Positions 11,034 to 53,449 of a stretch of 64,000 bases of DNA are shown here, piece by piece (positions within the stretch are counted from its first letter, which is position 1; each line of letters opens with the position of its first letter). Origin of the DNA: a virus; the IMG/VR virus record IMGVR_UViG_3300033056_000008, positions 46,387 to 110,386 of that record; one strand, given 5' to 3'. The position numbers were made by a program, and so were the translations under genes. Under the pieces are notes generated by a model, which was given only the letters and a program-made list of their open reading frames with translations, was not told where the DNA came from and searched no databases.

Positions 11034-11086
11034 TTCTCTAATCTCCTTTTCTAATAAACTACAAATTTAAATTAATTTATTTCAAC

Positions 11087-11272: not shown

Positions 11273-11290
11273 ATTACCACCTCCTGATAT

Positions 11291-12769: not shown

Positions 12770-12920
12770 CTTCGGTTTCTAATATGTATGTGCATTTGTT
12801 TTTAAAGTCCACGACCACTTTAACTGCATCATTATCCCAATTTGCAATATCCAGAGAATCATATTGACAATTAACCTTTTGTATTAATTTATTTCTTTTA
12901 TCGAATAATTTCCATTCCAA
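12753..12920 (-). CDS. 55-aa hypothetical protein (not in ORF track)
   Basis: TTG start behind AAGGTGATG; MEWKLFDKRNKL...EGEKVE; fills the gap between neighbours. Confidence 0.5.
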   Translation of the reverse strand: MEWKLFDKRNKLIQKVNCQYDSLDIANWDNDAVKVVVDFKNKCTYILETEGEKVE

Positions 12921-12921
12921 T

Positions 12922-13290: not shown

Positions 13291-13322
13291 TTCAATCATC
13301 CTTTCAATATAAAAGTGCTGTT

Positions 13323-13565
13323 TTATTTGACTTCTTGTTTCTTTCCTAATACTAAATTTCTGATAACTGAGTACACATAGCACATGAATAGATACAGTAA
13401 TGCAGTGAATAGAATCGCACTGCCTTTCTCTACAACAATTTTCAGTAACTCATTTCGCAAGATACTCACATGAAACAAAAATCCATTTGTGAAAGCAGCT
13501 AATAGAACAAAAGTAACCTCTTGATACCATCTCAATCCCATACTGTTATAAAAAGTTTTAAACAA
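13323..13565 (-). CDS. Small membrane protein
   Basis: Two hydrophobic helices. Confidence 0.6.
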   Translation of the reverse strand: MFKTFYNSMGLRWYQEVTFVLLAAFTNGFLFHVSILRNELLKIVVEKGSAILFTALLYLFMCYVYSVIRNLVLGKKQEVK

Positions 13566-13602
13566 GGTATCACCACCTTTTTTGTCTTTTAATTAATTTA
13601 TT

Positions 13603-14118
13603 TTATTTATTAGTCATATCAACTCCGATAATTGAATAACCAGTTAGATCCCTGTAGGGAGATTCGCTATCGCCATCCCCTGAAGGATTATTAAATATTC
13701 TATTTTGCTTATCCATCATCCTAACAGTAAGCAGCATATGTTGAATTAAATCACCAGGTATCGTGTATGTATTTTCATCTGTTTTGTATCTCTCCATTAG
13801 CACCAACATCATCTGGTATGTAGCATCCACTGAAGATCCATATTGCTTATTCTTTTCATCTGTAAACTTCCCAAGTTCTAATCCAATCTGACCAAACTTC
13901 CCTAGTTCTTCTGCCATCTGCACATCTCCCAATCTATCTAACTCAGATTCTCTAACTTTAAACTTATTTCCTGATTCATCTCGTACTATGTACTCGTATT
14001 TCCCTGTTGATAATCGTTCATGTATATGTACTGTCTTTCCAACATCATCTGGTAAATATAGTTTGGCTGATTCATTAACGATTAACGGCATATCTAATTC
14101 ATACAACCATCTTTTCAC
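13603..14118 (-). CDS. Protein with C-terminal DUF1599/Nmad1-like helical domain
   Basis: EKNKQYGSS...RMMDKQNRI...ESPYRDLTGYSIIG resembles the KNxDYG...DKxxR...DTxxDLxxY pattern. Confidence 0.6.
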   Translation of the reverse strand: MKRWLYELDMPLIVNESAKLYLPDDVGKTVHIHERLSTGKYEYIVRDESGNKFKVRESELDRLGDVQMAEELGKFGQIGLELGKFTDEKNKQYGSSVDATYQMMLVLMERYKTDENTYTIPGDLIQHMLLTVRMMDKQNRIFNNPSGDGDSESPYRDLTGYSIIGVDMTNK

Positions 14119-14121
14119 TAA

Positions 14122-14817
14122 TCATCCTTTCCCCTCTCTTATTATAGTGACCTTAGCTTTCTGCCTACCAAACTGTATAGCCTCTGATTCACTTGCTACC
14201 AGGAAATCAACAATATCGTTTTTTATTGCTCCACCTGTATCTAAACTAATTGCCTTTATCTTTCTTCCGCTATTCAAGCTTATTTCTACAATTGAATACA
14301 AAGGAATGACTGATGGATCAGTTGCTATAATATTATATCCCTGATAATACACTGTAGATGATACGTCATATCCCGTCTTAGTAATACCTGAACATCCTTC
14401 TGTACATAATGGTTGATAAGCTGTTACAGTCATATCGAGTGTCTTTGAGCTTACCGAGGGTAACACCTGTTTCTCAGCATTCTCTAACTGCTGCTCAAGT
14501 TTATCAATCTGTGACTCTTGCTTCTTAATTTTTTTATCTTTCGTCGTAACTTCTTCAGTAAGTTTCTTCACATCTGTAATTGATGTATTTAACTCACCTT
14601 GTAAATCTTCAGCTTTCAAATTACTTTCAATTAATTTATTTTCTAACTTACTGCTAACTTCTAATTGTGCCTTGATCTCTTGCTTATATGTATCTCTGTC
14701 TTTACTGTATGTATGGTACTGATAACCATTTAGTGCCACCAGAGCTGCAACACCTGCTGTAATTAGTTTAGTTTTCTTCATAATGAATGCCCTTCGTGGA
14801 TAGAAGAGCTTCATCAC
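14122..14817 (-). CDS. Secreted coiled-coil plus 3D-domain protein (YorM-like)
   Basis: Signal/anchor, coiled coil, TVTAY...IATDPSVIPLYS...DTGGAIK..IVDFL. Confidence 0.88.
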   Translation of the reverse strand: MMKLFYPRRAFIMKKTKLITAGVAALVALNGYQYHTYSKDRDTYKQEIKAQLEVSSKLENKLIESNLKAEDLQGELNTSITDVKKLTEEVTTKDKKIKKQESQIDKLEQQLENAEKQVLPSVSSKTLDMTVTAYQPLCTEGCSGITKTGYDVSSTVYYQGYNIIATDPSVIPLYSIVEISLNSGRKIKAISLDTGGAIKNDIVDFLVASESEAIQFGRQKAKVTIIREGKG

Positions 14818-14956
14818 CTCGCCTTCTAAATTAATTAACTATTACAATTTATTTCCTATTTCCTGTTATTAATATATCATAAATTTACCTAAAAAGATAC
14901 TATTTAATTAATTTATTTTAAATTAATTTTGTGATCTAATTTTGAAGTTATTAGAA

Positions 14957-17260: not shown

Positions 17261-17276
17261 CTACATCACCGTCTTT

Positions 17277-18956
17277 CTAAAAGTACATTAGGTCAGTTAT
17301 TTCGTATTCTATGATATCAATTTGTGGAGTTTTGTTTCCCTCCCATTCATTTACCTGGCATTTACCTAATATATCTAAGTAAATTGTTTCACCTTCATTA
17401 AAGTCTCTATAAAAGTCCTCTTCTTTGAAAAACTGTTTTATAAAGTCAACCCCGTTATAATGAAATTTAAGTAGTTTTCTTTTCTTTCCAAGCAATTGAA
17501 CTGAAGATACCGGAATAGGGATATCTTTAATGGCGATTTTAGGTTCGTTTAATGTCGATCCCCATTCATCTTTATATTCTGCAATCTTTAACACCGTATC
17601 TCTTTTTACATACTCTTCGAAAAGCAAATCCACATTCTTACTATCAGTTTGAATTATTTTAAGTGACTCGTCATTCTTTATAACCTCCTCTAACTTGTTC
17701 AGATTCTTTTCTTCAATCTCTACTCCAAATGCGTTTCCGTGCCCTTCACAAAATACAAAAAGACCTGTATTAGTTAAATATTCTTTAAAGTCCTCTACTA
17801 CTTTTTCTTGTCCTCTAGCAGATCCAGCAAGGAAACCAGGTTCCCTTTCCCTTAGTAAAATTACTGGTCTTTTATACTTATCTGCTAATTGGTTAGCGAC
17901 CAAGCCAGTTAAATTTTTATCAACCGCATCAGTTATATTTAATATTAAAACTTTTTTATCTAACTTATCCTGAATTTTGTCTAACAGCACCTCAGTACCA
18001 GAAGCTTTTAATTTATTTTGCTTATTTCTTAGATTATATAAAGTTCTTGCAATCGATGTATGTAACGACTCGTAACATTTTCCTCTTTTATAATAAACTT
18101 CTTCATCTTGTTCAAGAAAAGATCTCATCATGCCTTCTTTTTCTTTATATGTACCAACTCTAATTCCTGCGTTTATTAGTGGGACTATGTAAAAAGCTGC
18201 TCCTATGATATTTACTTTCCCATTTAAAGAGTACTCTTGCTTATCTATTAGAGCTTCTAATAACGGATTTTTAATTTGCTGTAATCCTTGTTTAACCAGA
18301 TACCTAGTTTCTAATTCTCTGAGATCAATCATGTCTCCAATATTGCCGAATGCAACTAAATCTAAAAAGTCATCAGCATATGAAGTATTTAACTTATCAT
18401 CTAAAGCTTTACAAAATTTATATACAATTCCTGCACCGGAGAAATTTTTATTTAAGTATTCAGGTGATAATTGATTATTAACTACTATTGCATGTTTAGA
18501 TTCCTTTTCGCACTCATGGTGATCAAGTACAATTACGTCTATGCCTTTATCGAATAGTTGTCTATGCTCTTCGTATTGATTAGATCCAGCATCTGGAATT
18601 ATCACTAATTTTGCGGATTCAGGAACATCCTTTAACTGAACACCATGTCCTTTACCCTCTTGTAATTTCCAAGTGATTTTTATACCTGGGAATACACGAT
18701 ATAGATAGTTAATTAACGTTGCTGCTGCGCTATACCCATCAATATCAGAGTCGACTTGGACGAATACTTCACTGTCATCTTCTACATGTTGTAAAAGACA
18801 TGTTACTGCTTTTTCGATATTTCTAAGTGCATTATAGGATATTAGATAACTGTCGTCACATGTCAAAAGTGAAAATGTATCGTCTATACCTCTATTTCTA
18901 AAGATTGTTTCTATAGGATTATGAATATCATTCTCTCCTAACAAGGTAAAATCCAC
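17277..18956 (-). CDS. RecJ-like DHH/DHHA1 ssDNA exonuclease (YorK-like)
   Basis: DSDIDG, PDAGSN, LDHH, GSAR, GH motifs. Confidence 0.92.
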   Translation of the reverse strand: MDFTLLGENDIHNPIETIFRNRGIDDTFSLLTCDDSYLISYNALRNIEKAVTCLLQHVEDDSEVFVQVDSDIDGYSAAATLINYLYRVFPGIKITWKLQEGKGHGVQLKDVPESAKLVIIPDAGSNQYEEHRQLFDKGIDVIVLDHHECEKESKHAIVVNNQLSPEYLNKNFSGAGIVYKFCKALDDKLNTSYADDFLDLVAFGNIGDMIDLRELETRYLVKQGLQQIKNPLLEALIDKQEYSLNGKVNIIGAAFYIVPLINAGIRVGTYKEKEGMMRSFLEQDEEVYYKRGKCYESLHTSIARTLYNLRNKQNKLKASGTEVLLDKIQDKLDKKVLILNITDAVDKNLTGLVANQLADKYKRPVILLREREPGFLAGSARGQEKVVEDFKEYLTNTGLFVFCEGHGNAFGVEIEEKNLNKLEEVIKNDESLKIIQTDSKNVDLLFEEYVKRDTVLKIAEYKDEWGSTLNEPKIAIKDIPIPVSSVQLLGKKRKLLKFHYNGVDFIKQFFKEEDFYRDFNEGETIYLDILGKCQVNEWEGNKTPQIDIIEYEITDLMYF

Positions 18957-18972
18957 TCAATCCCCTCCTTTA

Positions 18973-20037
18973 TTAATTAATTTTATATTGGTGTTCACTG
19001 TATAAACACTCCCATGTTTCTCGACCTCGATCAGTTGGAGAATCCTTATCTTCTAAAATATTTTCTGAATCATAAATGGAATAACGTAATCGCCCTTTTA
19101 ACTTATTTATTTCATCATATATAAATTTTGTATCTTTATCTTTATCCCAAACGAATATGTATTTTGTTTCTAATCCTAGTTCTTTAAGTAACTGTATTTG
19201 ACTCTCAGTAAGGATATCTCCTTCTATACTTATTGCATTCTTATATCCCCATTGATTTAAATACCAAGTTGTTTTGGCTCCTTCTACTATAATTACTTCT
19301 TTTTTCTCTTTTATATAAGGTAAAGCCCTATGTAAGTTATAAAATTCAATTGATTTATTACACGGTATAACATATAGATATTTATATTTATTTTCAATAT
19401 CCTCGTTACTCCCACAGTATCTGCCCTTATAACCGATCAATTCACCGTTCTTATTATGTATTGGAAACACTATTCTTTCGCTCGGTACATCAATGCTGAC
19501 ACTAAATTCTTTTTGCGTCCTTAATGTTAAACCTTCATCTAACCATTTCTTATAGGGCACAACACCGTAATGATCTAAATAGCTATCTGATATTACCTTG
19601 TTTATTTCGTATATGTATGGCGACTTCTTACCATTTAACTTCTTAAGCCAATGATTATAATTTGTTTCCTCTTCTTGCTTATCCGACGTTACTCTATAAA
19701 ATTCATCTATGTATTCAAAGTAATTGAATTTATTACAAACCCAATATTTGCTTTTAGCTAGTAAACTTTTTCTTTTTTCGTCTGTATCTCCCTCAAACTT
19801 TATATAAGAAATAATATCAAAGATACTGCCTGATATACCTTTACTCCTTATAGCTGAAGATAGCGTTGGATTGTTCTTAATTTGCACGGATCTTGGATTA
19901 TCACCATCTGGCAAGCCTGCAACGATTAACTGTCCTCTTTGTTCTTCTTCAATACCCCAGCAGCCCAGCTCTATAAGTAATTCGTCTATTTTATCCTCTT
20001 TATACAGTCTCTCTTTAATCGCTTCTAATTCTGACAT
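18973..20037 (-). CDS. DNA primase (TOPRIM; YorJ-like)
   Basis: IVFPIHN..G..IGYKGR, IIVEG, WDKD; next to the helicase. Confidence 0.88.
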   Translation of the reverse strand: MSELEAIKERLYKEDKIDELLIELGCWGIEEEQRGQLIVAGLPDGDNPRSVQIKNNPTLSSAIRSKGISGSIFDIISYIKFEGDTDEKRKSLLAKSKYWVCNKFNYFEYIDEFYRVTSDKQEEETNYNHWLKKLNGKKSPYIYEINKVISDSYLDHYGVVPYKKWLDEGLTLRTQKEFSVSIDVPSERIVFPIHNKNGELIGYKGRYCGSNEDIENKYKYLYVIPCNKSIEFYNLHRALPYIKEKKEVIIVEGAKTTWYLNQWGYKNAISIEGDILTESQIQLLKELGLETKYIFVWDKDKDTKFIYDEINKLKGRLRYSIYDSENILEDKDSPTDRGRETWECLYSEHQYKIN

Positions 20038-28471: not shown

Positions 28472-30514
28472 TTAAAATTTAACTTTAATAACTCTTTCAG
28501 TCTGACCTTTTACTTTAACCAATAATTCGTTTCTCTTAGTTGCTGAGAATCCTAATCCCGATAACTGATCAGCTACTTGCATTACTGCCATTTTACCTCC
28601 TAATGCCTCAAACACACGTTTATGTTTCACTAAATCTTCCTTCAAAAACTCATTATAGAATCCATTTGGATTTTCTGGATTTACACAATCTTTTAACATG
28701 AAGAAATAATGTTTATGCCCGATTCCCTTTTGTTCATTCCAATAGTTAGGTGATAACATAACCACAGATACCGGAACAAATTGATTTGTTTTTAATTCCC
28801 ATACTTCTTTTGAAGTTACGTTTGAAGGCAATTTTTCTTTAATAGTAAATTTATCACCATCAAACTGTACTTCAGCAACTGTTACATTCTCACTATTTCT
28901 TAGTTCTTTGTTGTATACAAACGAATATATTTGTCCATCAAACTCAATTTCAGCTCTAAATCCACTTCTACCTCCTCTGTGGCTAAAGTTATGAACGAAG
29001 AATTTATAGGTACCTTTTGACATTCTGCTTTTATCTGTCCAGGTAATATTTTCAACAGCAGGCGTGTTTCTTGTAGGAGTTATAATGTCGACATCCAGTT
29101 CACCTGTAGTGTATCTGTTTGTTTTGTTTCCGTAATATATTTCATTGCCATTTGGCTCGTAACAATGAGCATCTAGATCATTCCCATCTTGGTCAACATC
29201 ATTCCATTGAATAGAAAATCGCAATACTCCTTCTACGTTACCTCCTGCAGATTTGACTCTTTCCCTCATGGAGCTATCCGTTATATTCCCTGAATAAGCC
29301 CAACTGAAAGCATTGTCCCATTTAAACATTGTTTTACTATCTTCATTTTCTGGTGCTATTAATGAAACCATATTGTTTGAATGTTTATTTTCCAAGAAAA
29401 CCTCTACTTCTCTTGCTGTTGGTAATACGTTATTAACAAAATCCTCTACTGGAATTTCTTCTACTTTAGAGAACTTTTTAGGATTAACTGTAATTTGAGT
29501 AGACATTTCTTCGAATATATCTAAACCACCGATTCTTTTAGCAGCATCTTTATTCGAGAATAAAATATTGTTTACAGTTATATCATCCAATTTAGCATAT
29601 CTTCTATTCAGTGAACTTAAATACCCTAAGTCTTCAATTGTTTTCTTGGCATCTTCTAGCATCTTTTTTGTAAAAATTGCTTTCGGTCTTTTGTAATTAA
29701 CTGGTGCAACAATAACTTCGTATTTTCTAACTGCAGTATCTAAATCCATACCTTCGCTAATATTGATTAAAAGTGTACCGATACTATGATTCTTAATTCT
29801 ACCAATCGCTGCACCTACATTTACTGATTGTTCCCAAGTATAATTATCTTTTTCTTGACTTGTGCCCAATCTATCAAATGCTTTTTTATATTTTAAAAAC
29901 TCGGTTAAAACACCTTTCCACTCTTCACCCTTATATAGTGAATTCTGTGAAATTAGTTCCAGAACTGTTAATAAGCTATCTTCTGAAATCTCATCTAATG
30001 ATCTTTTAAAAACATTCCTAGTATCTCTTAACTCTCCTTTTACTTCTGCATCCGACTTTGAGCTTCTATTTAAAAACTTATTTGGTAGTTCGAGATAGAA
30101 GTGATCCCACTCTGTTACGTTACCATTCTCTAATTGTTCGTAATTACTATCTGTTCCTATTTTCTTAAATTTACTTATCCAAACTTCTGATACTGCTTTA
30201 GATTTAACATATGTAGATAGTACTTGAACTACTGGTTTGAAGGTATCATCTTCAATTTCAAAATCCCAAATACTAGATATCACATTATCTTTAATAACTA
30301 CTGCATTACCAATACTTTTAACGAATTGTCTGCAGCAACTACAGTCAAATTCTCTTCTTTCTCTATAAATCTCGTTTGTTCCTTCTGGGAAACTATCTAA
30401 ATATAAATTCCACATTTCCTCTTTATCCAGATTTACTTCAAATAAATGTGAAGCATCTTTAGTCATTTTCGTAAAATTCCCCTGTAACAATTCTTTAAAG
30501 TGTTTAAATCCCAT
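28472..30514 (-). CDS. Large conserved phage protein with DUF2135/YfaP-like C-terminal domain
   Basis: 680 aa; FDCSCC; LRFSIQW...DLDAHC...LDVD...AVENITW...YKFFVHNF. Confidence 0.75.
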
Positions 30515-37747: not shown

Positions 37748-37969
37748 GTGGGTTCAAAAGATGAAGTAATCGGAAAATGCCTGCTTTCAAATTTACTAGA
37801 AAGATCCAAAATGACACAAGTTGATTTGTCGGTTATAACTGGAATATCTAAGCAGCAATTAAATAGATACATAAACTCTGACAATGGTGCTATGTCTCTG
37901 TCTAATGCACGTTTGATATCCAAGGCACTCAACTGTAAAATTGAAGATCTTTATGAATGGAAAGTTTAA
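37748..37969 (+). CDS. yopS: XRE HTH regulator, SPbeta YopS homologue
   Basis: IGKCLL..LL....MTQVDLSVITGISKQQL...AL.CKIEDLYEW; convergent with the yopR homologue as in SPbeta. Confidence 0.8.
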   Translation: MGSKDEVIGKCLLSNLLERSKMTQVDLSVITGISKQQLNRYINSDNGAMSLSNARLISKALNCKIEDLYEWKV

Positions 37970-38242: not shown

Positions 38243-39268
38243 TTACAGACGTGCCTTCGATTCAGTAACTTCTACTCCATATAAATTCAACAGGTTCTCA
38301 GGATTAATAAACTTAGCCATGAAGTTTCTATTGTATTGTACATCTCCATTTTGTTGTCTCATTGTACTGTAATTATAATAAGCTCCAATTTCCTGATATA
38401 ATTCAGTGCTTAAATTGGTATACTTCTTTTGATTAAATATTAAATCGTAAGCCATATAAAGCATGCCACTTTGCATAACAGTTTTAGAAGTAAAATATTC
38501 TAAGTCTAAGAAATCTTTTAAACGACTAATTCGACCATATAAAGCCGATGGACTTACACTAGACCCCTCTTTTAAACGGGCACTTGTAGTGTTTTTCAAA
38601 ATTAAATCAGAAGGTACTAAGTTCTGTGCCTTCCCAAATTTATCATTGCTTCTATAATATTCTGTAGCATTATGAGCTCTTTCTAAATAATACAAAACTC
38701 TATCGTTAACTTCTCTAGTTACAGTAATAACACTGTCTGTTAACTTGTCCTCTCTATTATTAATTGTTACAATTCCGTTTTTCCAATCAATATCATAGTA
38801 AGACAAATGGGTTAACTCTTTAAATTCTTCACCAATGATTCCCTGGAACATCAATGCTAACATAGCTTGATCTTGTGCATTTGGAGTTTCCTCTAATATA
38901 TCTTGAAATTCATCATAAGAATAATATAATTTTCTATTGTTATCTAAAGTAGATTTATAAAAATTATCATCTGCAGCTAATAACGGACTTATATTATTTA
39001 ATCTATATCCATTTTCTATCATCCATGAAATATAAAAGTTTAAATAATTACCTTTTCTTTTTGCATCTGCTAGAGAAAATGGTCTTATACTTTCTAAAAC
39101 GTTTCTAATTTCATCTCTTGTGAAATCTGATATATCCTTATCTCTATTCTTCTCATATTTAGCAATTTTCTTAAATAAGTAAAAAACATTGTGACGACTT
39201 CCTTCAGAATCAGCATAAGCGTCATGTAAAAAAGTCTCTTTTATTTTTTGATTATACAATTCGCTCAT
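38243..39268 (-). CDS. yopR: Tyrosine-recombinase-fold master repressor (YopR/MrpR/SroF-like), catalytically degenerate
   Basis: SAM-like N-terminus (YNQKIKETFL...F.KIAKYE...KDI.DFT), DQAMLALMFQGI.GE; no TGxR or HxxR; third gene of the yopP-Q-R synteny. Confidence 0.8.
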   Translation of the reverse strand: MSELYNQKIKETFLHDAYADSEGSRHNVFYLFKKIAKYEKNRDKDISDFTRDEIRNVLESIRPFSLADAKRKGNYLNFYISWMIENGYRLNNISPLLAADDNFYKSTLDNNRKLYYSYDEFQDILEETPNAQDQAMLALMFQGIIGEEFKELTHLSYYDIDWKNGIVTINNREDKLTDSVITVTREVNDRVLYYLERAHNATEYYRSNDKFGKAQNLVPSDLILKNTTSARLKEGSSVSPSALYGRISRLKDFLDLEYFTSKTVMQSGMLYMAYDLIFNQKKYTNLSTELYQEIGAYYNYSTMRQQNGDVQYNRNFMAKFINPENLLNLYGVEVTESKARL

Positions 39269-40638
39269 ATCTCTACTCTATCCCCATTCAAATTAATATT
39301 CTCGAAAATCTCTTTGAGTGATTTCTTAATTTTATCATTATTATATATCTTACTATTCACTCTTCCTTTTTCATCAATTAATCCTATTTCTTCCCAAATT
39401 GGATTGGTTCTATTGAAATCAATTTGCTTAATCAAGGAACTTACTTCTTTTGCTTTCACTTTCTTTTCAAACATTTTTCTTGCTAATGTGATATATCCGA
39501 TAAACATAACATTAGAATTAATCAGAGAAGTTTTATTTATTTCTTGAGCTTTTGTTAAAAATTCTTCTTCATTTTTACCAATTAAGTAATTAAAGAAATC
39601 CGCTAAGTATTCCCCTACATCTTCAGCGTCAATTCTCTTATGCAGATCAAATTCTTCTTCAATAGTATCTGACAAAACAGAATATGATACTAACTCTCCG
39701 TGTTCAATAAATGGTCTTGACTTAGACGATATTCTACCTTTTAATTCAGAATCCTCTTTTAGTATTTGTGCAGATATATCTGCAAATCTGTTTGCAGATA
39801 ATTCTTTAATTCGGTTTTCATTAATTGGTGAAGCTTTTGCTAGTTGCGCTTGATACTGTTGAGCTTTTTTCTTATTATAATTAGTTAAAAGGATTGAGAA
39901 ATTAAAATTCAATTCTGGATCTACTGTTAAAGCATTTTGTGCACCTGTAATCCTGTGCATTCCATCTACGATTGCAATTTTTGTACCATCCGTTATAGTT
40001 AATGTTCTTTTCTTAGCATCATAAATTAACTCATCTCCGTGAGTAGCAGTTCTTGGCATAGCGTTAAGTACTAAAGTAGTTGTAACGAGTGTACCATCCA
40101 AAAGATGCTTTGTTATTTCTTCTACATTTTTCATAATTATTGTTGGTTGTGCAACTACGATATTTTGTCTTTTAACTAAGGTTTTCTCTCGTTGTAAATC
40201 TGAATCATAATATAAAATTCCGCTATTTAGTAATTTATTTATAACTTTAATATCTAATACTATTTGATAAGATGAATTTTGCATTAAGGATACGTTCTCA
40301 ATTACAATAGGATAATCTGTAGTTTGTTCTACTGTCTTAGTGTGCCCACTAAATTGCCTAGAATCATCTATTTCAGATTGATAAAAAAATTCTTCTGGAT
40401 CTATTACATCAACTCTTGTTTTAAAATAAACTTGTTCGCTAAACAACATCAATTCCCTGATATCTAATTCAGGAATTCTTTCTTCGGGATTATTAAAAAT
40501 CCCTTGTACATTAGTCATATCATGACTCTTTAATAATTTATCACTAATATCTTCAACTTTATCTTTATATCTACGTAATTCAGTTTGTTCTAACACTTGA
40601 ATTAAGTTACTTTCTAAGATAGCTCTAGATTTCTTCAT
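39265..40638 (-). CDS. yopQ: DGQHR/DndB-like ParB-superfamily protein (YopQ/SroE-like)
   Basis: IVDGMHRITG; between the two recombinase-fold genes. Confidence 0.78.
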   Translation of the reverse strand: MKKSRAILESNLIQVLEQTELRRYKDKVEDISDKLLKSHDMTNVQGIFNNPEERIPELDIRELMLFSEQVYFKTRVDVIDPEEFFYQSEIDDSRQFSGHTKTVEQTTDYPIVIENVSLMQNSSYQIVLDIKVINKLLNSGILYYDSDLQREKTLVKRQNIVVAQPTIIMKNVEEITKHLLDGTLVTTTLVLNAMPRTATHGDELIYDAKKRTLTITDGTKIAIVDGMHRITGAQNALTVDPELNFNFSILLTNYNKKKAQQYQAQLAKASPINENRIKELSANRFADISAQILKEDSELKGRISSKSRPFIEHGELVSYSVLSDTIEEEFDLHKRIDAEDVGEYLADFFNYLIGKNEEEFLTKAQEINKTSLINSNVMFIGYITLARKMFEKKVKAKEVSSLIKQIDFNRTNPIWEEIGLIDEKGRVNSKIYNNDKIKKSLKEIFENINLNGDRVEI

Positions 40639-40726
40639 AGCTTCACCCACCAAATTCTCTATATATCGTAATTTAATTTTATTATAACGAACTTTACATG
40701 TAAACCTTTTATCATTTTATGATAAT

Positions 40727-41803
40727 TTATTTTCTACACTCTTTTTCATAAAATCTTTTAATTTCATTTTTAACTTTTGAGCTCGAACTCATAATAAAAA
40801 GCTTAAACTGCTCTATTGTCATATCCTCAATAAAGTCCATCTCGATTTCTTTATCCATTAAGATGCCTGGCATATTAAGATAATCTTTATCTTTGTCCAT
40901 ATAATGTTTTACTGATGTGTTAATATTGCCATGGTGTAATTGTCTTTGCACTCTTTTTAAATCCCTATTTCGCTCGTAGTCCCAATCTGCTGCAACCCCT
41001 CGAAAACTATGGAATACAATTCTTCTATCTCCTACAAATTTTACCTTCTTAAGTAATCTCTTCATCATGTCATTTACTCCTGATACAGATAACTTAAACA
41101 ATAACTCTTGATTACCCTTCCATTTTGGCACATGTATGTTAGATAAGTTAGAAATTTTTTTATATAAATCAATACTAATTGGATTTTCTTTATCTTTGTA
41201 TTTCTTTTCTGTTAATTTATCAACATGAACCAATACTACCCCTTCATCCTCAAGTACTTCAAAATTATCAATTGTTAATTTAAGTAATTCTGAAAGTCTA
41301 AATGAAGTTCTTATTGCTAATTTACATAGTAACTGTTTCATTTCTGCTAAATTCTTCTCAGTATGTGGGACTAAGCTAATTAATGTTTCTGCCTCTTCAA
41401 AAGTAAGGTTATCATAGGATTCAGAATCATCCGGTAAACTATTCAAATTAAATATTCCTAAGTTTAGTTCTAGATACACCTTTAATTTTGTTGCAAATTT
41501 TTTAGTAAACAAACTTTTTATTGATCTAACTTTTTTATTTATCGTATTGTTTGAATTACCTTTAAGCTTTAGTTCACTTCGGTATCTCACTAAATCATCT
41601 TGTTCAATATTTGTTATATCTAATGGAGTTAATAATTCAATTGGCTTATTAGGAAAGATAATATCAAAGAATTCGTTTATTGTTCCTTTATATGAAGCAA
41701 GGGTACCGGTTTTACCTTCTTGTTTTAAAGTTTCATAAAAAACTTGGATATCATTGTATACCTGGTAACTATGTAACGCTTCAAGTTTAGGACTAGTTGA
41801 CAT
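40727..41803 (-). CDS. yopP: Tyrosine recombinase (YopP/SroD-like) with intact catalytic set
   Basis: RTSFRLSEL (R), FHSFR (HxxR), LHHGNINTSVKHY (H, Y); 358 aa. Confidence 0.85.
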   Translation of the reverse strand: MSTSPKLEALHSYQVYNDIQVFYETLKQEGKTGTLASYKGTINEFFDIIFPNKPIELLTPLDITNIEQDDLVRYRSELKLKGNSNNTINKKVRSIKSLFTKKFATKLKVYLELNLGIFNLNSLPDDSESYDNLTFEEAETLISLVPHTEKNLAEMKQLLCKLAIRTSFRLSELLKLTIDNFEVLEDEGVVLVHVDKLTEKKYKDKENPISIDLYKKISNLSNIHVPKWKGNQELLFKLSVSGVNDMMKRLLKKVKFVGDRRIVFHSFRGVAADWDYERNRDLKRVQRQLHHGNINTSVKHYMDKDKDYLNMPGILMDKEIEMDFIEDMTIEQFKLFIMSSSSKVKNEIKRFYEKECRK

Positions 41804-41993
41804 ATCGCTTACCCCCTTCAAAACTTTCTAATTTATTTATTCTATTTTCAAGTATTTTTACAATTGTTTTGAATATCATTAAGTTTTTTTTCATTATAGC
41901 TAAGTTATTATGTTTAGAACCTTCTTTTACCCATTCGATTAAATTATGATTTGATACATCTAATTCTAATTTTCTAGGTTTTACAATATGCAT
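41793..41993 (-). CDS. 66-aa first gene of the repressor operon
   Basis: GGAGAGGGG RBS, ATG 41993, overlaps the yopP start. Confidence 0.6.
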   Translation of the reverse strand: MHIVKPRKLELDVSNHNLIEWVKEGSKHNNLAIMKKNLMIFKTIVKILENRINKLESFEGGKRYVN

Positions 41994-47376: not shown

Positions 47377-47568
47377 CTAATAAAGGTAACCTATACTTCC
47401 TTGTACTTGTGACTGTGTAACTTCCTTAATGGACGTTCCTTTAGCAAAGTACTTACCAATATTCTTCCTTGCTTCAACTTGGTCATTTGCCCAAATACCA
47501 ACATAATTAGTTCCGTGTAAGTATTCCCTAGCAGCAGTTCCTTCTACAAAGTACAAATAATAATTCAC
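47377..47568 (-). CDS. Small phage protein coupled to the CCA gene
   Basis: Start overlaps the CCA stop. Confidence 0.6.
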   Translation of the reverse strand: MNYYLYFVEGTAAREYLHGTNYVGIWANDQVEARKNIGKYFAKGTSIKEVTQSQVQGSIGYLY

Positions 47569-48833
47569 TTAATACCCATCTCCTTTTTCATTTGCTTAAC
47601 AATAGCAGCTTGCCTTCTTCTCTTATCATCTCTTGCTCTAATGCCTTCAAATTCTTTATTACCCTTTACTTTTACAATCTCTTCTCCAGCTCTCAGAGCA
47701 AATTCATAATAAGGATGTTCTTTAGTCGGATCACCTTTCCCTCTAGTGTCTGCTAACCCAATTGCTGCAAAACCATCTAGCCCAATAGGATTCTTATGTG
47801 CTTTCATCAGTAAATCAGATACTTTAATATCTCTTATTTCACCAATTCTATGAAACTTGCCATGGTACTCAGTCGCAAATAATGCAGTATCTTTCCACTT
47901 GTTCGGTACTCCTAATGCTTCAGATAGCTCTTTAACTAATGGAACACCTTCATCCTCATGACCATGGTGATTAGGTAATAATTCCTTTGGTGTTACAGCC
48001 TTACCTAAATCATGAACTAAAGCAGAATAAAGTAACTCAACTCGATCAGTAAGCTTACTCATAGCCACTAATACCTGCATCGTGTGCTCAAACGCATCTC
48101 CTTCTGGATGATACTTTTCAGGCTGTGTAACTCCGAATAAATCAGACACTTGTTTAAAGTGTATCTGTAATATCCCTAACTCCTGCAGCAATCTAAAAAA
48201 CTTATCAGGATTCTCTGCAGTTAATGCCTTTTCTAATTCTTTAACGACTCTTTCCTTATGTATTAAATGTAACTCTTCTGATGCCTTAATCATCATTTCC
48301 TTTGTTCTTTCCTCTACATTAAACCCTGTTATCGCAGCTCTAACTGCTATTCTGTATACTCTCAAAGGATCTTCGTAAAATGCTTCAGAGGTTGCTTTGA
48401 TTATTCGATTCTTAACATCAGCAATGCCACCGAATGGATCAATATATTTATCCTTTTCAATGTCATAAGCAATTGAATTAATTGTAATATCCCTACGCTC
48501 TAAATCTTCTTCTATAGTTACTGACTCATCTGAATTGAAGCTAAATCCATGATAACCTTTACCTGTTTTAACTTCTTTTCGAGCTAAAGAAACTTCTTGT
48601 GTCTCATCATCAATATTTAATAAAAACACATCAACTGTTTGTTTTCCCTTTTCACCGATTACTTGTTTAGCCTGTGGAAACACAGCTAGAAACTTCTCCC
48701 TATTAAATCCAGTGACACAGTAGTCCTTGTCTTTGGGAGTCTTATCCATCAAAGTGTCACGAACCCATCCCCCGACAACGTACAGTTTTCCGCCATGATT
48801 AATTATTGTTTTAGAAAATGCCTTTTCATTCAT
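47565..48833 (-). CDS. cca: CCA-adding / poly(A) polymerase-family nucleotidyltransferase with HD domain
   Basis: VGGWVRD...DKDY, DLERRDITINSIA, EDPLRVYR, EHT...HDLGK. Confidence 0.9.
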   Translation of the reverse strand: MNEKAFSKTIINHGGKLYVVGGWVRDTLMDKTPKDKDYCVTGFNREKFLAVFPQAKQVIGEKGKQTVDVFLLNIDDETQEVSLARKEVKTGKGYHGFSFNSDESVTIEEDLERRDITINSIAYDIEKDKYIDPFGGIADVKNRIIKATSEAFYEDPLRVYRIAVRAAITGFNVEERTKEMMIKASEELHLIHKERVVKELEKALTAENPDKFFRLLQELGILQIHFKQVSDLFGVTQPEKYHPEGDAFEHTMQVLVAMSKLTDRVELLYSALVHDLGKAVTPKELLPNHHGHEDEGVPLVKELSEALGVPNKWKDTALFATEYHGKFHRIGEIRDIKVSDLLMKAHKNPIGLDGFAAIGLADTRGKGDPTKEHPYYEFALRAGEEIVKVKGNKEFEGIRARDDKRRRQAAIVKQMKKEMGIK

Positions 48834-49568
48834 TTAATCACCTAATTCATTTTTAATTTGTTCCCTGACGTATTTCCTTACAACTCCATCAACGTACTGT
48901 TTCATCCCAATATCAGACTCTTTATCTTTATATCTGTCTTTAAATCCTTCGATAATGGATTTTTTCTGTAAAAGTCTGTTCTCAGGTTCATGAATATTAC
49001 CTTTTCTAAAATTGAATAGGATATCTCTATAATCGTCTTGTTCATGATAATAAATCGCATTTTGAAAACTATTAAAATCTGAGTGCTGGTATCTGTATAA
49101 AAAGTCTAGAATTCTAAAAGCAGACATAGCGTGTTTATTAACTTTCTTGATTAATTCAGAGTTAGTTTGATCTTGTTCTAAACGTTTATTGTCTCGCTGG
49201 TAATCCTTATATTTTTGATAGAACATTCCCATACACGCGTCATACAAGTAAGGTAAATTCATTCTAGCGATTCCTTCTCTTTTATCAATGAGCTCTTTAT
49301 AAAGACCATCAGATGTATTTACCTGTTGTGAGAACAATACTTCAATGAAATTCACATTACTTTTCCATAGCATGTCGGGTAGTTTTCTAATATCATGAAA
49401 TGAAATATCTTCCTCTACACTTGTAGAAGCCTTCGAGCTTTTATCCCCTGAATATAAGTCTTCAAATGTAGGGTAATAAAACACCTTATAATCCAAATCT
49501 GAATCTGCAGTGTTTAAGTTATAATTATGACTTCCTGTAAGTACCTTAAACGATTGTTTTCTCTCCAT
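48834..49568 (-). CDS. Pol-beta superfamily nucleotidyltransferase (RlaP/YcgL-like)
   Basis: GSHNYNLNTADSDLDY, HDIRK...LWKSNVNFIEVLFS; its TAA abuts the CCA ATG. Confidence 0.82.
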   Translation of the reverse strand: MERKQSFKVLTGSHNYNLNTADSDLDYKVFYYPTFEDLYSGDKSSKASTSVEEDISFHDIRKLPDMLWKSNVNFIEVLFSQQVNTSDGLYKELIDKREGIARMNLPYLYDACMGMFYQKYKDYQRDNKRLEQDQTNSELIKKVNKHAMSAFRILDFLYRYQHSDFNSFQNAIYYHEQDDYRDILFNFRKGNIHEPENRLLQKKSIIEGFKDRYKDKESDIGMKQYVDGVVRKYVREQIKNELGD

Positions 49569-49602
49569 ATAATCCTCCCTTATTGTCCATTATTCTATAA
49601 TT

Positions 49603-50058
49603 TTACTGGAAAAACGTAAATGACTTCAGAACAATTCTTCCTTCATCATCTACCCTTACTAAAACATCATCATTTTTACGCAGCAAATTCTTATCTATAA
49701 TGCTACCTGGTAGATGAATAGTATTATCGGATACCATCTTTACAGAGTTTCTAGCCTTGTAATTGGGATCTAGTATTAACTCTTTATTAATAACATGTGC
49801 TCTTAATGCAAAGTAATCACCATATGACAAACCTAACTGCGTTACAATTAACTTAGGAATTCTCACTTTAACTACATAACTGCCACTTACAGCCATAATT
49901 TTCGCCTTATGTATTGAATAACCCTCAACTATGTATTCATATATCTCTTGTAAACTCTCATACTTAAATGCACGTAAACTATGTTCTGACCACTTCGTTC
50001 TATTTTGTATAAGTTGAACTAATTGATCCCTTTCTAATTTAGTTTTAACTTCTGTCAT
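49603..50058 (-). CDS. Protein with tandem AbrB/MazE-like swapped-hairpin domains
   Basis: VRIPKLIVTQLGLSYGD and IHLPGSIIDKNLLRKNDDVLVRVDDEGRIVLK. Confidence 0.65.
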   Translation of the reverse strand: MTEVKTKLERDQLVQLIQNRTKWSEHSLRAFKYESLQEIYEYIVEGYSIHKAKIMAVSGSYVVKVRIPKLIVTQLGLSYGDYFALRAHVINKELILDPNYKARNSVKMVSDNTIHLPGSIIDKNLLRKNDDVLVRVDDEGRIVLKSFTFFQ

Positions 50059-50386
50059 CCCGTTTGTTAACCTCCATTATTTAATTAATTTATTTAATTA
50101 ATTTTATTATTATGTAATAAAAGTTTGTGAATCTTCACCCGTTATAAACCTTGTTATATCAACGTTTCCAAACTTATTTCACAATCTAATTCAGCATAAA
50201 ATCATGGTTTTATTTAGTCTCGGTACTTAGCAATTCACAAATCCACTTATGAAATTCAATATCTTTTATAATCTTCCTTCTGCTTTCTGACTTTTTAGTG
50301 TAAAGAAGAATTTTTTCTAAATATTCTATTCTTTCTTTAGAAGTGTCATTTACGTATCTGAGAATTTCTATAGCAAGTCATCCTTT

Positions 50387-50647
50387 CTATTTCCAAAATT
50401 CATTCTTAAAATGATTCCTACCATAATCTTTTATTGCTTGCAGTTTCTCAATCATTTCATCAATGTCACAGATATGTATGTAATTAGTATTATAACCAGT
50501 TTCATCTTCACATGGCTTAATGCCGTTCCATCCAATTCTGTAGTCAATGCACCCATCCCACTTTAACGTAACTTCGGTAAAACCATATTCTTCATCTTCT
50601 ATAACTACATTATTACTTCCTTCATACACTTTAATTTGTTTGTACAA
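50387..50647 (-). CDS. Hypothetical phage protein
   Basis: GAGGT RBS. Confidence 0.65.
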   Translation of the reverse strand: MYKQIKVYEGSNNVVIEDEEYGFTEVTLKWDGCIDYRIGWNGIKPCEDETGYNTNYIHICDIDEMIEKLQAIKDYGRNHFKNEFWK

Positions 50648-50683
50648 CTACCTCACTCCCATCTCTATCCACTTTCCAAATAA

Positions 50684-51061
50684 TTAAATTAATTTTTTTA
50701 ATGTAAGTAGTACATTTAGACATTTTAAATAAATTTGCTGCCAAACTGTAAATTTAACACATGAACTCTCTTCTACTAATTTAATCTTATCTCTACTTTG
50801 AAATTCATCCCAATTTGGCTCTGGTGATATTAGAATTGGAACTGGACAATCAAAGTACCACTCTGATACTTGGTTACACAGTGTGCATTTATATGTAAGT
50901 AAATCTTCATCACTTACGAAACTGCCAGAACTAATTAAGTCCTTACGACATTTAGGACAATAACAATATGTAGACTGAATAACTTTCACCTTCTTTACAA
51001 TTTTAGATTCAAAGCAATAATGTTCTATAAACCTTAGTGATATTTCCAAACTCAATTTCAT
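50684..51061 (-). CDS. Zinc-ribbon protein
   Basis: CPKC...CTLC; start uncertain. Confidence 0.6.
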   Translation of the reverse strand: MKLSLEISLRFIEHYCFESKIVKKVKVIQSTYCYCPKCRKDLISSGSFVSDEDLLTYKCTLCNQVSEWYFDCPVPILISPEPNWDEFQSRDKIKLVEESSCVKFTVWQQIYLKCLNVLLTLKKLI

Positions 51062-51191
51062 CCAATTGTTTTTGTACGTGCTTCATGAAGCCTCCAACCA
51101 TACCTTCTATTTGAAGGATAGTAAAAGTCATATCAACTGTTTCACCTTCTTCATTATGAAATGTATAATTAATTTTAGTTTGATGTGTCAT
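51009..51191 (-). CDS. Small phage protein
   Basis: GGGAG RBS. Confidence 0.55.
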   Translation of the reverse strand: MTHQTKINYTFHNEEGETVDMTFTILQIEGMVGGFMKHVQKQLDEIEFGNITKVYRTLLL

Positions 51192-51393
51192 TTAACTCAC
51201 TCCCTTACATTCATTTAGCTTTAACAAATAGTTTATGAATTCTTTGTTCACAATGCTCTTCAGGATCTAAAATATATGACTGATGTTGTTCACTTGGAAT
51301 TCCTATAAATCTAAGACATCCATCTTTTAACTCACATTTATCATTACTACACATCATAATATCCATTAATTCCCCCTCCTCTCTATACACAAA

Positions 51394-51417
51394 AAGTGGA
51401 GTTATAACTCTCCACTT
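51394..51417. terminator. Hairpin
   Basis: AAGTGGAG-TTATAACT-CTCCACTT. Confidence 0.5.
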
Positions 51418-51433
51418 CTATTAACCTAACTAT

Positions 51434-51462
51434 ATTATATTAATTTATTTTTAATTAATCAA
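51434..51462 (-). promoter_or_regulatory. Sigma-A promoter with AAAATAAATTAA in the spacer
   Basis: TTGATT (51462-51457), 17 nt, TATAAT (51439-51434). Confidence 0.75.
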
Positions 51463-51530
51463 CTGTTATTTAAATTATTTTACAATTTATATTTTTAATT
51501 ATCATATGTATATATGTATGGATATATTGG

Positions 51531-51692
51531 CTACTTAGCGCTTCGAAGTAACTTTATCGCTGTATTTTCATTATTTAACTTATCTCCATTACGAGAAACA
51601 TTGTCCAATCTTAGATCAATGCTGGCAAATTTATAAAATTCACGATATTGTTTTTCGTATTTTAATTTATTTATACTTACAACGTTACTCAT
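51531..51692 (-). CDS. 53-aa protein downstream of the arbitrium locus (not in ORF track)
   Basis: GGAGGTG RBS; own promoter TAGACA-17-TATACT; MSNVVSINKLKYEKQY...RSAK. Confidence 0.6.
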   Translation of the reverse strand: MSNVVSINKLKYEKQYREFYKFASIDLRLDNVSRNGDKLNNENTAIKLLRSAK

Positions 51693-51805: not shown

Positions 51806-51943
51806 TTAATTATGTATCCATTCCTCTTCAGTTTTAATGTCTCCACATTTACAACTTATAGTTGACCAACAAGACCAGCAAGGAGTATCTCCATTTTCTT
51901 CAGCAGATAGCATATTGACCAATTCTTCACTTGTTATCTTCAT
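51806..51943 (-). CDS. 45-aa Cys-rich protein, positional aimX candidate (not in ORF track)
   Basis: AAGGGAG RBS; MKITSEELVNMLSAEENGDTPCWSCWSTISCKCGDIKTEEEWIHN; first ORF after the aimP terminator. Confidence 0.5.
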   Translation of the reverse strand: MKITSEELVNMLSAEENGDTPCWSCWSTISCKCGDIKTEEEWIHN

Positions 51944-51972: not shown

Positions 51973-52014
51973 TTTGTATTTTTCGTTTCAGGTGTTTTTC
52001 GATTAAAATACAAA
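51973..52014. promoter_or_regulatory. Candidate AimR operator (inverted repeat)
   Basis: TTTGTATTTT-N22-AAAATACAAA, overlapping the U-tract of the aimP terminator. Confidence 0.5.
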
Positions 52015-52045
52015 TGGTGCTATCCTAATTAAAGGATAACACCAT
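52014..52045 (-). terminator. aimP terminator
   Basis: 13-bp stem ATGGTGTTATCCT/AGGATAGCACCAT (one G-U pair) followed by TTGTATTTT on the minus strand. Confidence 0.8.
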
Positions 52046-52076
52046 TCAGTATGTACTTTATTAATTTACTTTTTAA

Positions 52077-52220
52077 TTATCCGCCTACTGGTGGATCAGC
52101 CATTGGTTTCTCAACTGCAGGCTGTTCTGCAACTTTACTAACTTTTGCTGCTCCGAAACCAAAACCTAGTCCTAGAGCTAATGCAGAAGTTACAAATAAA
52201 ATTTTAACGATCTTTTTCAT
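52077..52220 (-). CDS. aimP: Arbitrium pro-peptide AimP; predicted mature peptide DPPVGG
   Basis: AAAGGAGGTG RBS; MKKIVKILFVTSALALGLGFGFGAAKVSKVAEQPAVEKPMADPPVGG: signal peptide plus C-terminal peptide, directly after aimR. Confidence 0.9.
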   Translation of the reverse strand: MKKIVKILFVTSALALGLGFGFGAAKVSKVAEQPAVEKPMADPPVGG

Positions 52221-52237
52221 TGTTATTTCACCTCCTT

Positions 52238-53386
52238 TCAAGATACTCTTAGAGTAATTAAGTCATTTAAAACTTCTTCATCAAAACCATTTTTAATACA
52301 TTCAATTCTTGGTAAGTTCGCTAAGAATGCGTCACCAATATGCATGTATTCGATTATCGATTTCAAAAGAATATTATTATTTTTTTCATTCTTGCCTTTA
52401 ATATAAAGATAAAAAGCTTTTTCTAATTTATCTTTGTTTTTTTCTAAAATTTCAGTTACATCATTACCACTATTAACTTCTTTTAGAATTTTATTTTTTA
52501 TATACTTACATTCGTAATTACATTTTCCCCAGAGAACATCAACTAATTCTAATTTCTCTTCAAGATCCTTAACTACTACTTCTCTTCCTAATTCAGAATA
52601 TAACTCTAAACTTTTAGAGAAATGTTTTCTAGTAAACTCGTAACAGTTGAAGATATAGGAATATCCTTTAATAAAATAACCATAAGCCTCAAAAGATTTT
52701 CCAATATCAGTGTTTGAGTTTATTACATAGTCTGCATATGTTCTAGCTACTACTTCATCATTGCAAACTCTTAGAGTTAAATATGACATTGTTTCACTAT
52801 GTCTAACTCTATACATCTTCATAAGATAATTACTAGTCAAGTTCTCCAAATCATACTCAATCTCTTCTGCTAAAGTCATTACCATATTGTATCTTCCTAA
52901 TTGGTGATAGCAATACGTTCTTAGTATATTCGTGAATAATATAAGCTTAGAATCTGAGCTTTTAACGCTTCTAACATCCACTAGCATTTTTTGATAATCT
53001 ACATTAGGGAAATTTTCTTGATGATTCTTAAGCAGTCTGTACGGCTTAACCCACGCTTTATTTTTGGAATTCTCCATTCTATTCAGTAGCGTGTCCATTC
53101 CATCAAATTGACGATTCAAAGATAGAAATTCTAGTAAAAATCTAGCAGTTGCCTTGCTAGGATCGATATCTTTCGAGGCATTTGATAAGTGGGTTAGATA
53201 TTCTTCAGGGTACATAAATTCCAGCATTCTTACAAATCCATCAAAATTATCTATTTCACCATCTGGTTTAGCTAGCATTTCCATAAGTTTGTTACCACTA
53301 GCATATCTTGCGATAATGGCTAGTTCTGTTGGCATCCCTCTATTACCATCAATATGTTTTAAGATCATCTGCTTCAAAGCTTTCAT
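52238..53386 (-). CDS. aimR: Arbitrium receptor AimR (HTH-TPR, RRNPP family)
   Basis: 382 aa; pattern matches SPbeta AimR as recalled (N-terminal HTH, AR..LE, TPR helices, C-terminal YLYIKG...KSI...GDAFLANLP..E); followed by aimP. Confidence 0.88.
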   Translation of the reverse strand: MKALKQMILKHIDGNRGMPTELAIIARYASGNKLMEMLAKPDGEIDNFDGFVRMLEFMYPEEYLTHLSNASKDIDPSKATARFLLEFLSLNRQFDGMDTLLNRMENSKNKAWVKPYRLLKNHQENFPNVDYQKMLVDVRSVKSSDSKLILFTNILRTYCYHQLGRYNMVMTLAEEIEYDLENLTSNYLMKMYRVRHSETMSYLTLRVCNDEVVARTYADYVINSNTDIGKSFEAYGYFIKGYSYIFNCYEFTRKHFSKSLELYSELGREVVVKDLEEKLELVDVLWGKCNYECKYIKNKILKEVNSGNDVTEILEKNKDKLEKAFYLYIKGKNEKNNNILLKSIIEYMHIGDAFLANLPRIECIKNGFDEEVLNDLITLRVS

Positions 53387-53420: not shown

Positions 53421-53449
53421 AATATACAACAAACGTTCGCATATTTCAA
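53421..53449 (-). promoter_or_regulatory. aimR-proximal sigma-A promoter with near-consensus LexA box in the spacer
   Basis: TTGAAA (53449-53444), 17 nt, TATATT (53426-53421); CAACAAACGTTCG at 53427-53439. Confidence 0.6.

Follow-up and report, generated by a model that had tools for sequence, protein, structure and literature searches.

The arbitrium system has so far been worked out almost wholly on a few RGA-type systems from phages of Bacillus subtilis. The locus described here raises the question of whether a receptor gene followed by a small open reading frame (ORF) ending in DPPVGG is a system of the same kind, and of how its receptor would read a signal without RGA. It lies in a 64,000-nt stretch (hereafter the window; positions 46,387 to 110,386) of the IMG/VR virus record IMGVR_UViG_3300033056_000008, a 178-kb provirus record with a single AimR gene. 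The prophage originates from a marine sample, and two metagenome runs contain the stretch, one marine and one from macroalgae, either of which may be its source; no RNA run is listed with it, and a rhizosphere run shows a share of 0.13. A sequence-only reading had assigned to the locus an arbitrium receptor (AimR) and its pro-peptide (AimP) with an Arg-free code on an SPbeta-like backbone. The analyses presented here make it very probable that these genes form a functional arbitrium module through which an SPbeta-like temperate phage communicates over lysis and lysogeny. Nine or ten clades of arbitrium receptors are distinguished, their signals being 6-10 residues long, and the window AimR has the same receptor family and fold as the SPbeta group (phi3T SAIRGA, SPbeta GMPRGA, Katmira/Goe11 GIVRGA). 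This group is reportedly the 'clade 2' of Stokar-Avihail et al. 2019.

The receptor and its pro-peptide gene

The 382-aa protein is an AimR-family receptor. It matched the Pfam AimR family (PF22871) with an E-value of 2.9e-42 (145 bits, cut-off 26.7) and phrog_1728 (transcriptional regulator; the PHROG family of arbitrium-type regulators) with an E-value of 1e-39, and a PDB profile search with the protein and its close relatives returned AimR chains exclusively (E 6e-26 to 1e-17). The AlphaFold2 model, built on 45 relatives, had a predicted local distance difference test score (pLDDT) of 94. Its top 16 fold matches in Foldseek were all AimR chains, with template modelling (TM) scores of 0.70-0.81; after a large gap, Rap, NprR and PlcR were the next folds, Rap reaching only about 0.5 TM. 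The arbitrium identity proposed from the letters alone is thus borne out by Pfam, PDB profile and fold matches, and the Niallia and Cytobacillus relatives carry the NCBI name 'AimR family lysis-lysogeny pheromone receptor'.

Downstream of the receptor gene, the ORF layout is as the sequence-only reading had described it in its coordinates, spacing, ribosome-binding site (RBS) and peptide. The TGA stop of aimR is followed by 17 nt (AAGGAGGTGAAATAACA) and the ATG of aimP on the same strand, whereas the ORF listing gives aimP as 54 aa, from an in-frame TTG further upstream. The AimP N-terminus is basic (MKKIVK) and runs into a 17-residue hydrophobic core (hydropathy about +2), resembling a signal peptide, and the C-terminus reads ...EKPMADPPVGG. 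AimP matched phrog_2682 weakly (E 0.004) and no Pfam model, and a homologous short ORF stands directly 3' of aimR in every relative retrieved.

The mature signal and its natural variants

A word-index search found five AimR relatives, 96, 73, 54, 53 and 49% identical to the window AimR, each with a 43-47-aa ORF 3' of the receptor gene that ends in DPPVGG. Outside the hexapeptide, the pre-pro-peptides of the three most distant are only 30-35% identical to that of the window, and the codon differences inside it are all silent (GAT/GAC, CCA/CCC/CCG, GGC/GGT/GGA and GGA/GGT), which together argue for selection on the hexapeptide itself. In the AimP alignment the conserved block begins sharply at the Asp, and the preceding residue is A, A, L, Y and Y in the five relatives. 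Since this residue varies and the pro-region diverges, conservation favours DPPVGG between the two forms that had been put forward, DPPVGG and ADPPVGG, and the mature signal is most likely DPPVGG.

Receptors further away (34-46% identity), found by a representative search and a genome scan, extend this to a compact natural series: DPPVGG, DPPMGG, DPPIGW, DPPINW, DPKPGG and DPKPGS. Asp1-Pro2 is invariant in 10 of 10 aligned AimPs, and positions 3 to 6 vary. The AimP of Bacillus sp. T33-2 (L011:5169-5294; labels of this type denote the relatives' loci) continues after DPKPGG with nine residues, MPPLEGGTL, to the stop, whereas that of Sporosarcina stops after DPKPGG; the extension may reflect read-through or a second processing site. 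On a metagenomic contig (L023:3001-5872), two tandem AimR genes each have their own AimP, one with DPPGAGG within a longer tail and the other ending in a duplicated DPGDGVQP.

A full-text literature search gave no paper with DPPVGG, and the supplementary tables on clade 2 contain none of PPVGG, DPP and DPK. Gallego et al. (10.1101/2025.10.13.681337) list in their clade-2 table neither a DPP or DPK peptide nor either of the named relatives of the window receptor. We could not find the DPP/DPK series in any text or table searched. No match came from a megablast search of 50,697 phage records with the 15 kb surrounding the locus.

The peptide pocket and its covariation with the peptide

In the SPbeta/Katmira AimR, Q299 and E300 hold the peptide N-terminus, R228 the C-terminal carboxylate, N202 and N273 the backbone, V198 and L199 Ala6, and N206, N329 and D360 Arg4 (PMC9232636). 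Mapped by an L-INS-i alignment of 42 receptors, the window residues at Q299, E300, R228, N202, N273, N206, N329, D360, V198 and L199 are K, N, S, Y, K, R, L, D, E and T; single columns may be one residue off because the alignment stands at 23-25% identity, and that of R228 is uncertain by one residue, with K230 adjacent. Only D360 is kept. Two of the three residues that hold Arg4 are replaced (N206R, N329L), and so are both anchors of the N-terminus (Q299K, E300N).

When AimR was modelled together with the entire 47-aa AimP, the complex reached an interaction prediction score from aligned errors (ipSAE) of 0.70, and the best control 0.01. Of solved complexes, 58 of 80 reach this mark, and of mismatched pairs 2 of 110. 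AimR-AimP complexes have already been solved, and the score may in part be due to likeness to them. Contact agreement between runs was at least 34% and partner pLDDT at least 38, and the AimP residues touching AimR in the docked model are exactly 41-47.

We consider the covariation at the predicted contacts more telling than the complex score, and for binding of the peptide it is indirect support. In the model, residue 271 contacts the peptide at positions 2-3; every receptor whose peptide has Pro3 carries V or I there, and the three whose peptide has Lys3 carry D or E. In the two receptors with Trp6, Y202 is replaced by A or S, Y158 by H or T, E198 by Q or S and R195 by K. Together with the docked model, the substitutions relative to the SPbeta AimR (N206R, N329L, Q299K, E300N, V198E, L199T and N202Y) support the claim that the pocket must differ from that of RGA receptors; as judged from the aligned residues, it clearly does. 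K278 is conserved in most members of the window clade, and it would be a guess, unmodelled, that it is the partner of Asp1.

These observations lead to a tentative proposal, which we hold at slightly less than even confidence: the window clade may read its peptide in reverse relative to the RGA clade, with Asp-Pro as the anchor and positions 3-6 as the code, and with one channel shared across SPbeta-like phages, since receptors as little as 49% identical use the identical DPPVGG. Under such a reversed reading the rules would be an acidic residue 271 for Lys3 and a shrinking of Y202, Y158 and E198 for Trp6.

Placement among arbitrium receptors

Trees were built with FastTree on 143 receptors, with an IQ-TREE mixture model on 73 and with LG+G4 on 37-39. 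All three agree on the clade of the window AimR (support 99-100), and SPbeta, Goe11, phi3T and BUCT082 form another clade (support 95-99). Between the window side and the SPbeta side, both larger trees place a branch with support 95-97. In approximately unbiased (AU) tests (37 rows, LG+G4), for which both groups were named after the tree was viewed, an exclusive union of the window clade with the SPbeta/phi3T core was rejected (p 0.0007), whereas placing the window clade as sister to all SPbeta-side receptors was not (p 0.36). The phylogenetic check suggested by the sequence-only reading therefore places the window AimR in a well-supported clade outside the SPbeta/phi3T core.

By BLAST, the nearest characterised receptor is that of phi3T (24% identity over the full length, E 8e-24), followed by SPbeta (23%), and the Wbeta, IEBH, BMBtp14 and Athena receptors gave far weaker matches. 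Wbeta was considered as nearest characterised relative (shared KPGG) and rejected, its receptor being far more distant than that of phi3T. The idea of a chimeric receptor, with an SPbeta-like DNA-binding head and a foreign tetratricopeptide repeat (TPR) body, was likewise rejected because head and body are equally low in identity to SPbeta/phi3T (18-22% and 21-23%). Compared with the relative P0005, which shares DPPVGG, the head of the window AimR (residues 1-60) is 42% identical and the peptide-binding body 53%; a head more diverged than the body among DPPVGG receptors is the opposite of the pattern reported for the SPbeta/Katmira AimR.

The channel is probably private with respect to RGA phages and apparently common to several diverged DPPVGG phages.

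Hairpin, candidate operator and aimX slot

In phi3T/SPbeta, aimP and aimX lie on one transcript with a terminator between them, and DNA-bound AimR is an antiterminator (PMC10769878). The window has a terminator-like hairpin between aimP and the next ORF, and phi3T has a comparable one at the equivalent place. The region has an RNA fold z of -4.7 and was also detected as an inverted repeat. The hairpin is about 97% identical between the window and the corresponding locus L004 (9345-9405), although the two AimRs are only 49% identical and the flanking small proteins differ; it is nearly identical across the DPPVGG relatives, and its conservation exceeds that of the genes on both sides. In the loci of Bacillus T33-2 and Sporosarcina (L011 and L012) both arms are changed, the compensation being read from one alignment of the relatives' loci. 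RNAalifold gave no consensus for the region, the automatic alignment of the distant loci being poor.

Directly downstream of the hairpin there is a perfect 10-bp inverted repeat, TTTGTATTTT and AAAATACAAA, with a wide spacer. The SPbeta operator is ATCACT-25-AGTGAT (PMC9232636), and by analogy the repeat is a candidate AimR operator, of which the outer CCATTT...AAATGG part is conserved in relatives. The 45-aa ORF that follows occupies the aimX slot, and its Cys motif recurs in the aimX slot of eight loci (L001, L004, L006, L011, L012, L020, L021 and L023). The small Cys-rich protein is possibly metal-binding. In the window and in L006 its N-terminus is shorter than in the other relatives.

On this basis the following course of events may be proposed. 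The aimR and aimP genes would be co-transcribed, the signal peptide would export the 47-aa AimP, and extracellular trimming would yield the C-terminal hexapeptide DPPVGG, which by analogy would be re-imported through the host oligopeptide permease (Opp) and bind the TPR groove of AimR. Peptide-free AimR would occupy the inverted repeat just downstream of the aimP terminator and permit read-through into the small Cys-rich ORF, favouring lysis; peptide-bound AimR would leave the DNA, transcription would halt at the hairpin, and lysogeny would be favoured. The difference from the RGA clade would lie in how the groove reads the peptide, with the N-terminal Asp-Pro constant and positions 3 to 6 setting specificity.

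Alternative readings

The small size of aimP, and the lack of a Pfam model matching it, are what one would cite for a chance reading frame beside an orphan receptor. This explanation is practically negligible, since an ORF stands in the same place in all relatives and its last six codons differ only synonymously within the DPPVGG group; position, signal-peptide shape and C-terminus are kept in 11 of 11 independent loci. A closer contender is the same system with a signal of another length, be it ADPPVGG, a longer form of 7-10 residues, or PPVGG: signals in published clades are predicted at 6 to 10 residues, the docked model also puts Ala41 at the interface, and Ala precedes the Asp in most members of the wider clade. 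We think it unlikely, as the DPPVGG receptors have A, L or Y at -1 with no conservation further upstream, and the invariant Asp1 and Pro2 of ten AimPs argue against the shorter form. The privacy of the channel might also be doubted, if the receptor were an ordinary member of SPbeta clade 2 that also answers RGA-type or other peptides. Cross-talk within clade 2 is documented (10.1101/2025.10.13.681337; 10.1101/2025.10.13.681967), and the sister relation to the broad SPbeta-side group was not rejected. The published cross-talk, however, is confined to closely similar peptides, and signals of other clades barely affected phi3T; with two of three Arg4-binding residues and both N-terminus anchors replaced, and with exclusive union with the SPbeta/phi3T core rejected, a non-private channel seems very unlikely.

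On the output side, AimR might sense the peptide but act as an ordinary activator or repressor of other phage genes, or the Cys-rich ORF might have an unrelated role. This would agree with the dissimilarity of the aimX-slot protein to phi3T AimX, with a yopP/Q/R cassette about 10 kb away instead of directly downstream, and with the marked divergence of DNA-binding heads even between DPPVGG receptors (42% identity for window and P0005). Against this, the terminator-like hairpin is placed as in phi3T and is more conserved than both its flanking genes, a wide-spaced inverted repeat follows it, and scanning gave no promoter-like site between hairpin and aimX-slot ORF, all of which makes an output other than SPbeta-type antitermination improbable. 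Against the arbitrium module itself, several points weigh. D352, which corresponds to the Arg4 holder D360 of SPbeta, is kept although DPPVGG has no Arg, and the residue mapping is based on the 23-25% identity alignment and a predicted complex. The candidate operator is conserved only partly among relatives, the Opp permease and the processing proteases of the host are assumed, and the aimX-slot protein has no similarity to phi3T AimX, so that the output step may differ.

Genome context

The features of the locus and of its relatives are collected in Table 1. The locus lies in a temperate phage or mobile element, as seen from the provirus record, the phage replication genes and the yopP/Q/R/S homologs. 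Among the replication genes of the window are those for the large subunit of a ribonucleotide reductase, for a DNA polymerase, a RecJ-like exonuclease and a DnaB-like helicase, and SPbeta presumably carries similar ones. The SPbeta-like backbone that had been claimed stands as far as gene content and order go, with yopP/Q/R/S and phi3T_82 homologs colinear with phi3T; it holds less well in that the yopP/Q/R homologs are only 26-32% identical and lie about 10 kb downstream of aimP. Among isolated phages, Psychrobacillus phage Perkons, Geobacillus virus E3 and those of the SPbeta group come closest in the yopQ homolog.

Table 1. Positions of the features discussed (in the window unless a locus label is given) and sister peptides of DPPVGG.
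Feature	Position	Strand	Remarks
Promoter-like site TTGAAA-17-TATATT, 5' of aimR	53421..53449	-	Consensus scan, 10/12 matches; not evidence of function
aimR	52238..53386	-	382-aa receptor: N-terminal helix-turn-helix (HTH) head and TPR-like peptide-binding body
aimP RBS AAGGAGGTG	52229..52237	-	Read from sequence; starts directly after aimR stop
aimP	52077..52220	-	47-aa pre-pro-peptide; ATG start, stop at 52077-52079
Codons of predicted mature hexapeptide DPPVGG	52080..52097	-	Peptide identical in six receptor lineages, codon differences only synonymous
Terminator-like hairpin between aimP and next ORF	52011..52048	-	14-nt arms, 6-nt loop, U-rich tail; terminator scan
Candidate AimR operator	51973..52014	.	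Perfect 10-bp inverted repeat, 22-bp spacer; directly downstream of hairpin
Candidate aimX	51806..51943	-	45-aa ORF with RBS in aimX slot; motif C-x2-C-W-x3,4-C-x-C
aimX-slot ORFs of relatives	L001:6363-6542; L004:9472-9681; L011:5417-5611; L012:5422-5616; L020:7444-7623; L021:2290-2469; L023:6025-6228		Same Cys motif
MazE/AbrB-type protein	49603-50058	-	146-151 aa in window and relatives; C-terminal domain
MazE/AbrB-type relatives	L001:7282-7737; L004:10178-10618; L020:9250-9705; L021:3182-3637		
RlaP-like nucleotidyltransferase, directly followed by CCA-type nucleotidyltransferase with HD domain	47565-49568	-	Same place in Niallia taxi prophage (L020:9740-11743)
yopP/yopQ/yopR homologs (SPbeta-like repressor cassette)	38243..41821	-	tblastn against phi3T region, colinear
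yopP homolog	40727-41821	-	29% identity, E 2e-33; phrog_1 integrase fold
yopQ homolog	39265-40653	-	32% identity, E 1e-56
yopR homolog	38243-39268	-	26% identity, E 8e-22
yopS homolog	37748..37969	+	47% identity to phi3T_98, E 2e-18; divergent from cassette as in phi3T
phrog_1735 protein	28472-30514	-	680 aa
Sister peptide DPPIGW			Niallia taxi
Sister peptide DPPINW			More distant receptor, 34-46% identity set
Sister peptide DPPMGG			More distant receptor, 34-46% identity set
Sister peptide DPKPGG			Sporosarcina globispora; Bacillus sp. T33-2 (with nine-residue extension there)
Sister peptide DPKPGS			Cytobacillus kochii

The roughly 10 kb between the aimX slot and yopP encode, among others, a MazE/AbrB-domain protein, an RlaP-like nucleotidyltransferase and a CCA-type/HD enzyme. 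The first of these recurs a few genes downstream of the arbitrium genes in four relatives, and a phage-borne MazE-like protein may be connected to arbitrium because that of phi3T works through the MazE-MazF pair of the host (PMC10769878). The nucleotidyltransferase pair also stands in the same place in the Niallia taxi prophage. Upstream of aimR, the locus of the 73%-identical relative carries, a few genes away, a SMODS nucleotidyltransferase with SLATT_4 (L001:1135-2565), a defence pair resembling the cyclic oligonucleotide-based antiphage signalling system (CBASS); a 231-239-aa HTH_3 protein is found upstream of aimR in L001, L004 and L020, with none among the scanned upstream ORFs of the window.

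Large phages of the B. cereus group (154-162 kb; TsarBomba, BCP78 and others) encode proteins 69% identical to the 680-aa phrog_1735 protein of the window, whose homologs occur in 549 phage records from many hosts. The left 20-30 kb of the provirus record have a G+C content of 0.36-0.39, against about 0.31 elsewhere. Its left end (1-20000, outside the window) encodes a baseplate of the contractile-tail type (Baseplate_J, Tail_P2_I, GPD), a tape-measure protein, an amidase and a DndB-like protein; the first 20 kb hold phage tail and lysis genes and no host genes. SPbeta is a siphovirus. The record may comprise two adjacent prophages or be a mosaic.

Comparison with known arbitrium systems

The locus shares with the SPbeta group an aimP directly downstream of aimR, a six-residue C-terminal signal (usually after Ala there), a terminator-like hairpin and wide-spaced inverted repeat before a small ORF, and the yopP/Q/R/S order. 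It differs in the replaced Arg4 contacts and N-terminus anchors, in a receptor clade separate from the core, in an unrelated aimX-slot protein, in the extra genes between aimX and yopP, and in the hosts of its relatives, which are Niallia, Cytobacillus, Sporosarcina and a Bacillus instead of the B. subtilis group. The peptide differs as well: the RGA C-terminal half occurs in 73% of clade-2 peptides, whereas DPPVGG has no Arg and ends in GG, and what is conserved is the N-terminal DP and not the C-terminal half.

The novelty of an Arg-free code that the sequence-only reading had implied was overstated. The clade-2 table already includes the Arg-free hexapeptides GFTVGA, GFGHGA, AIGNGG and KPGIGG, and also DPGRGG (10.1101/2025.10.13.681337); the active peptide form of Wbeta is EIKPGG (PMC8878798), which we also read from its genome as the AimP C-terminus, and a DPG motif is widespread in AimR-family peptides (PMC12700828). 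Since Arg-free and GG-ending arbitrium peptides have been described before, a non-RGA code is not new in kind. The DPGRGG AimP of the Bacillus pumilus group (Gallego et al., 10.1101/2025.10.13.681337), likened to the window by the peptide alone, is a hexapeptide after Ala with an Asp-Pro start and a Gly-Gly end, and keeps Arg at position 4. Wbeta (AimR wp28), of B. anthracis/B. cereus phages, likewise has an Arg-free, Pro-containing hexapeptide ending in GG, with KPG in common with the sister peptides DPKPGG and DPKPGS, but its receptor is only remotely related to that of the window (22% identity over 209 residues, E 5e-7) and its 'extended' architecture places a divergent repressor gene directly downstream, which is absent in the window. 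The DPG-motif AimPs of B. cereus-group phages (B83 ...MADPGGSVG, IEBH ...EADPGGTGG, Athena ...TDPGGGW) also start with Asp-Pro, often after Ala; their signals are longer and Gly-rich, their receptors are barely detectable by BLAST from that of the window (E 1e-4 to 0.5), and the phages are small siphoviruses with cI/cro-like neighbours.

In the extended module (Kabel et al. 2025), the order is aimR-aimP-aimX-aimC-aimL, with a small HTH repressor on the opposite strand directly downstream of aimX and a divergent cro-like gene. Among the scanned ORFs downstream of aimX in the window (47565-51061, minus strand) there was no HTH Pfam match, small ORFs at 51009-51692 falling outside the scan, and no plausible opposite-strand gene was seen in 47565-51061.

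Biological significance

In a survey of the genus Bacillus, the SPbeta-type layout was found solely with clade-2 receptors. The present locus extends this layout, with its terminator-controlled aimX slot and yopP/Q/R, to a receptor that falls outside the SPbeta/phi3T core and, as its relatives suggest, to hosts beyond the B. subtilis group and in other genera. It leaves the general picture of arbitrium function unchanged, and the receptor-peptide covariation adds a little to the otherwise modest interest of the locus. Because peptide changes in the DPPVGG series go along with substitutions at few receptor positions, mutagenesis can test directly how a second receptor clade specifies its peptide. 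If the clade does read its peptide in reverse through one channel, different SPbeta-like phages in non-subtilis Bacillaceae (Niallia, Cytobacillus, Sporosarcina and marine relatives) would affect whether the others choose lysogeny.

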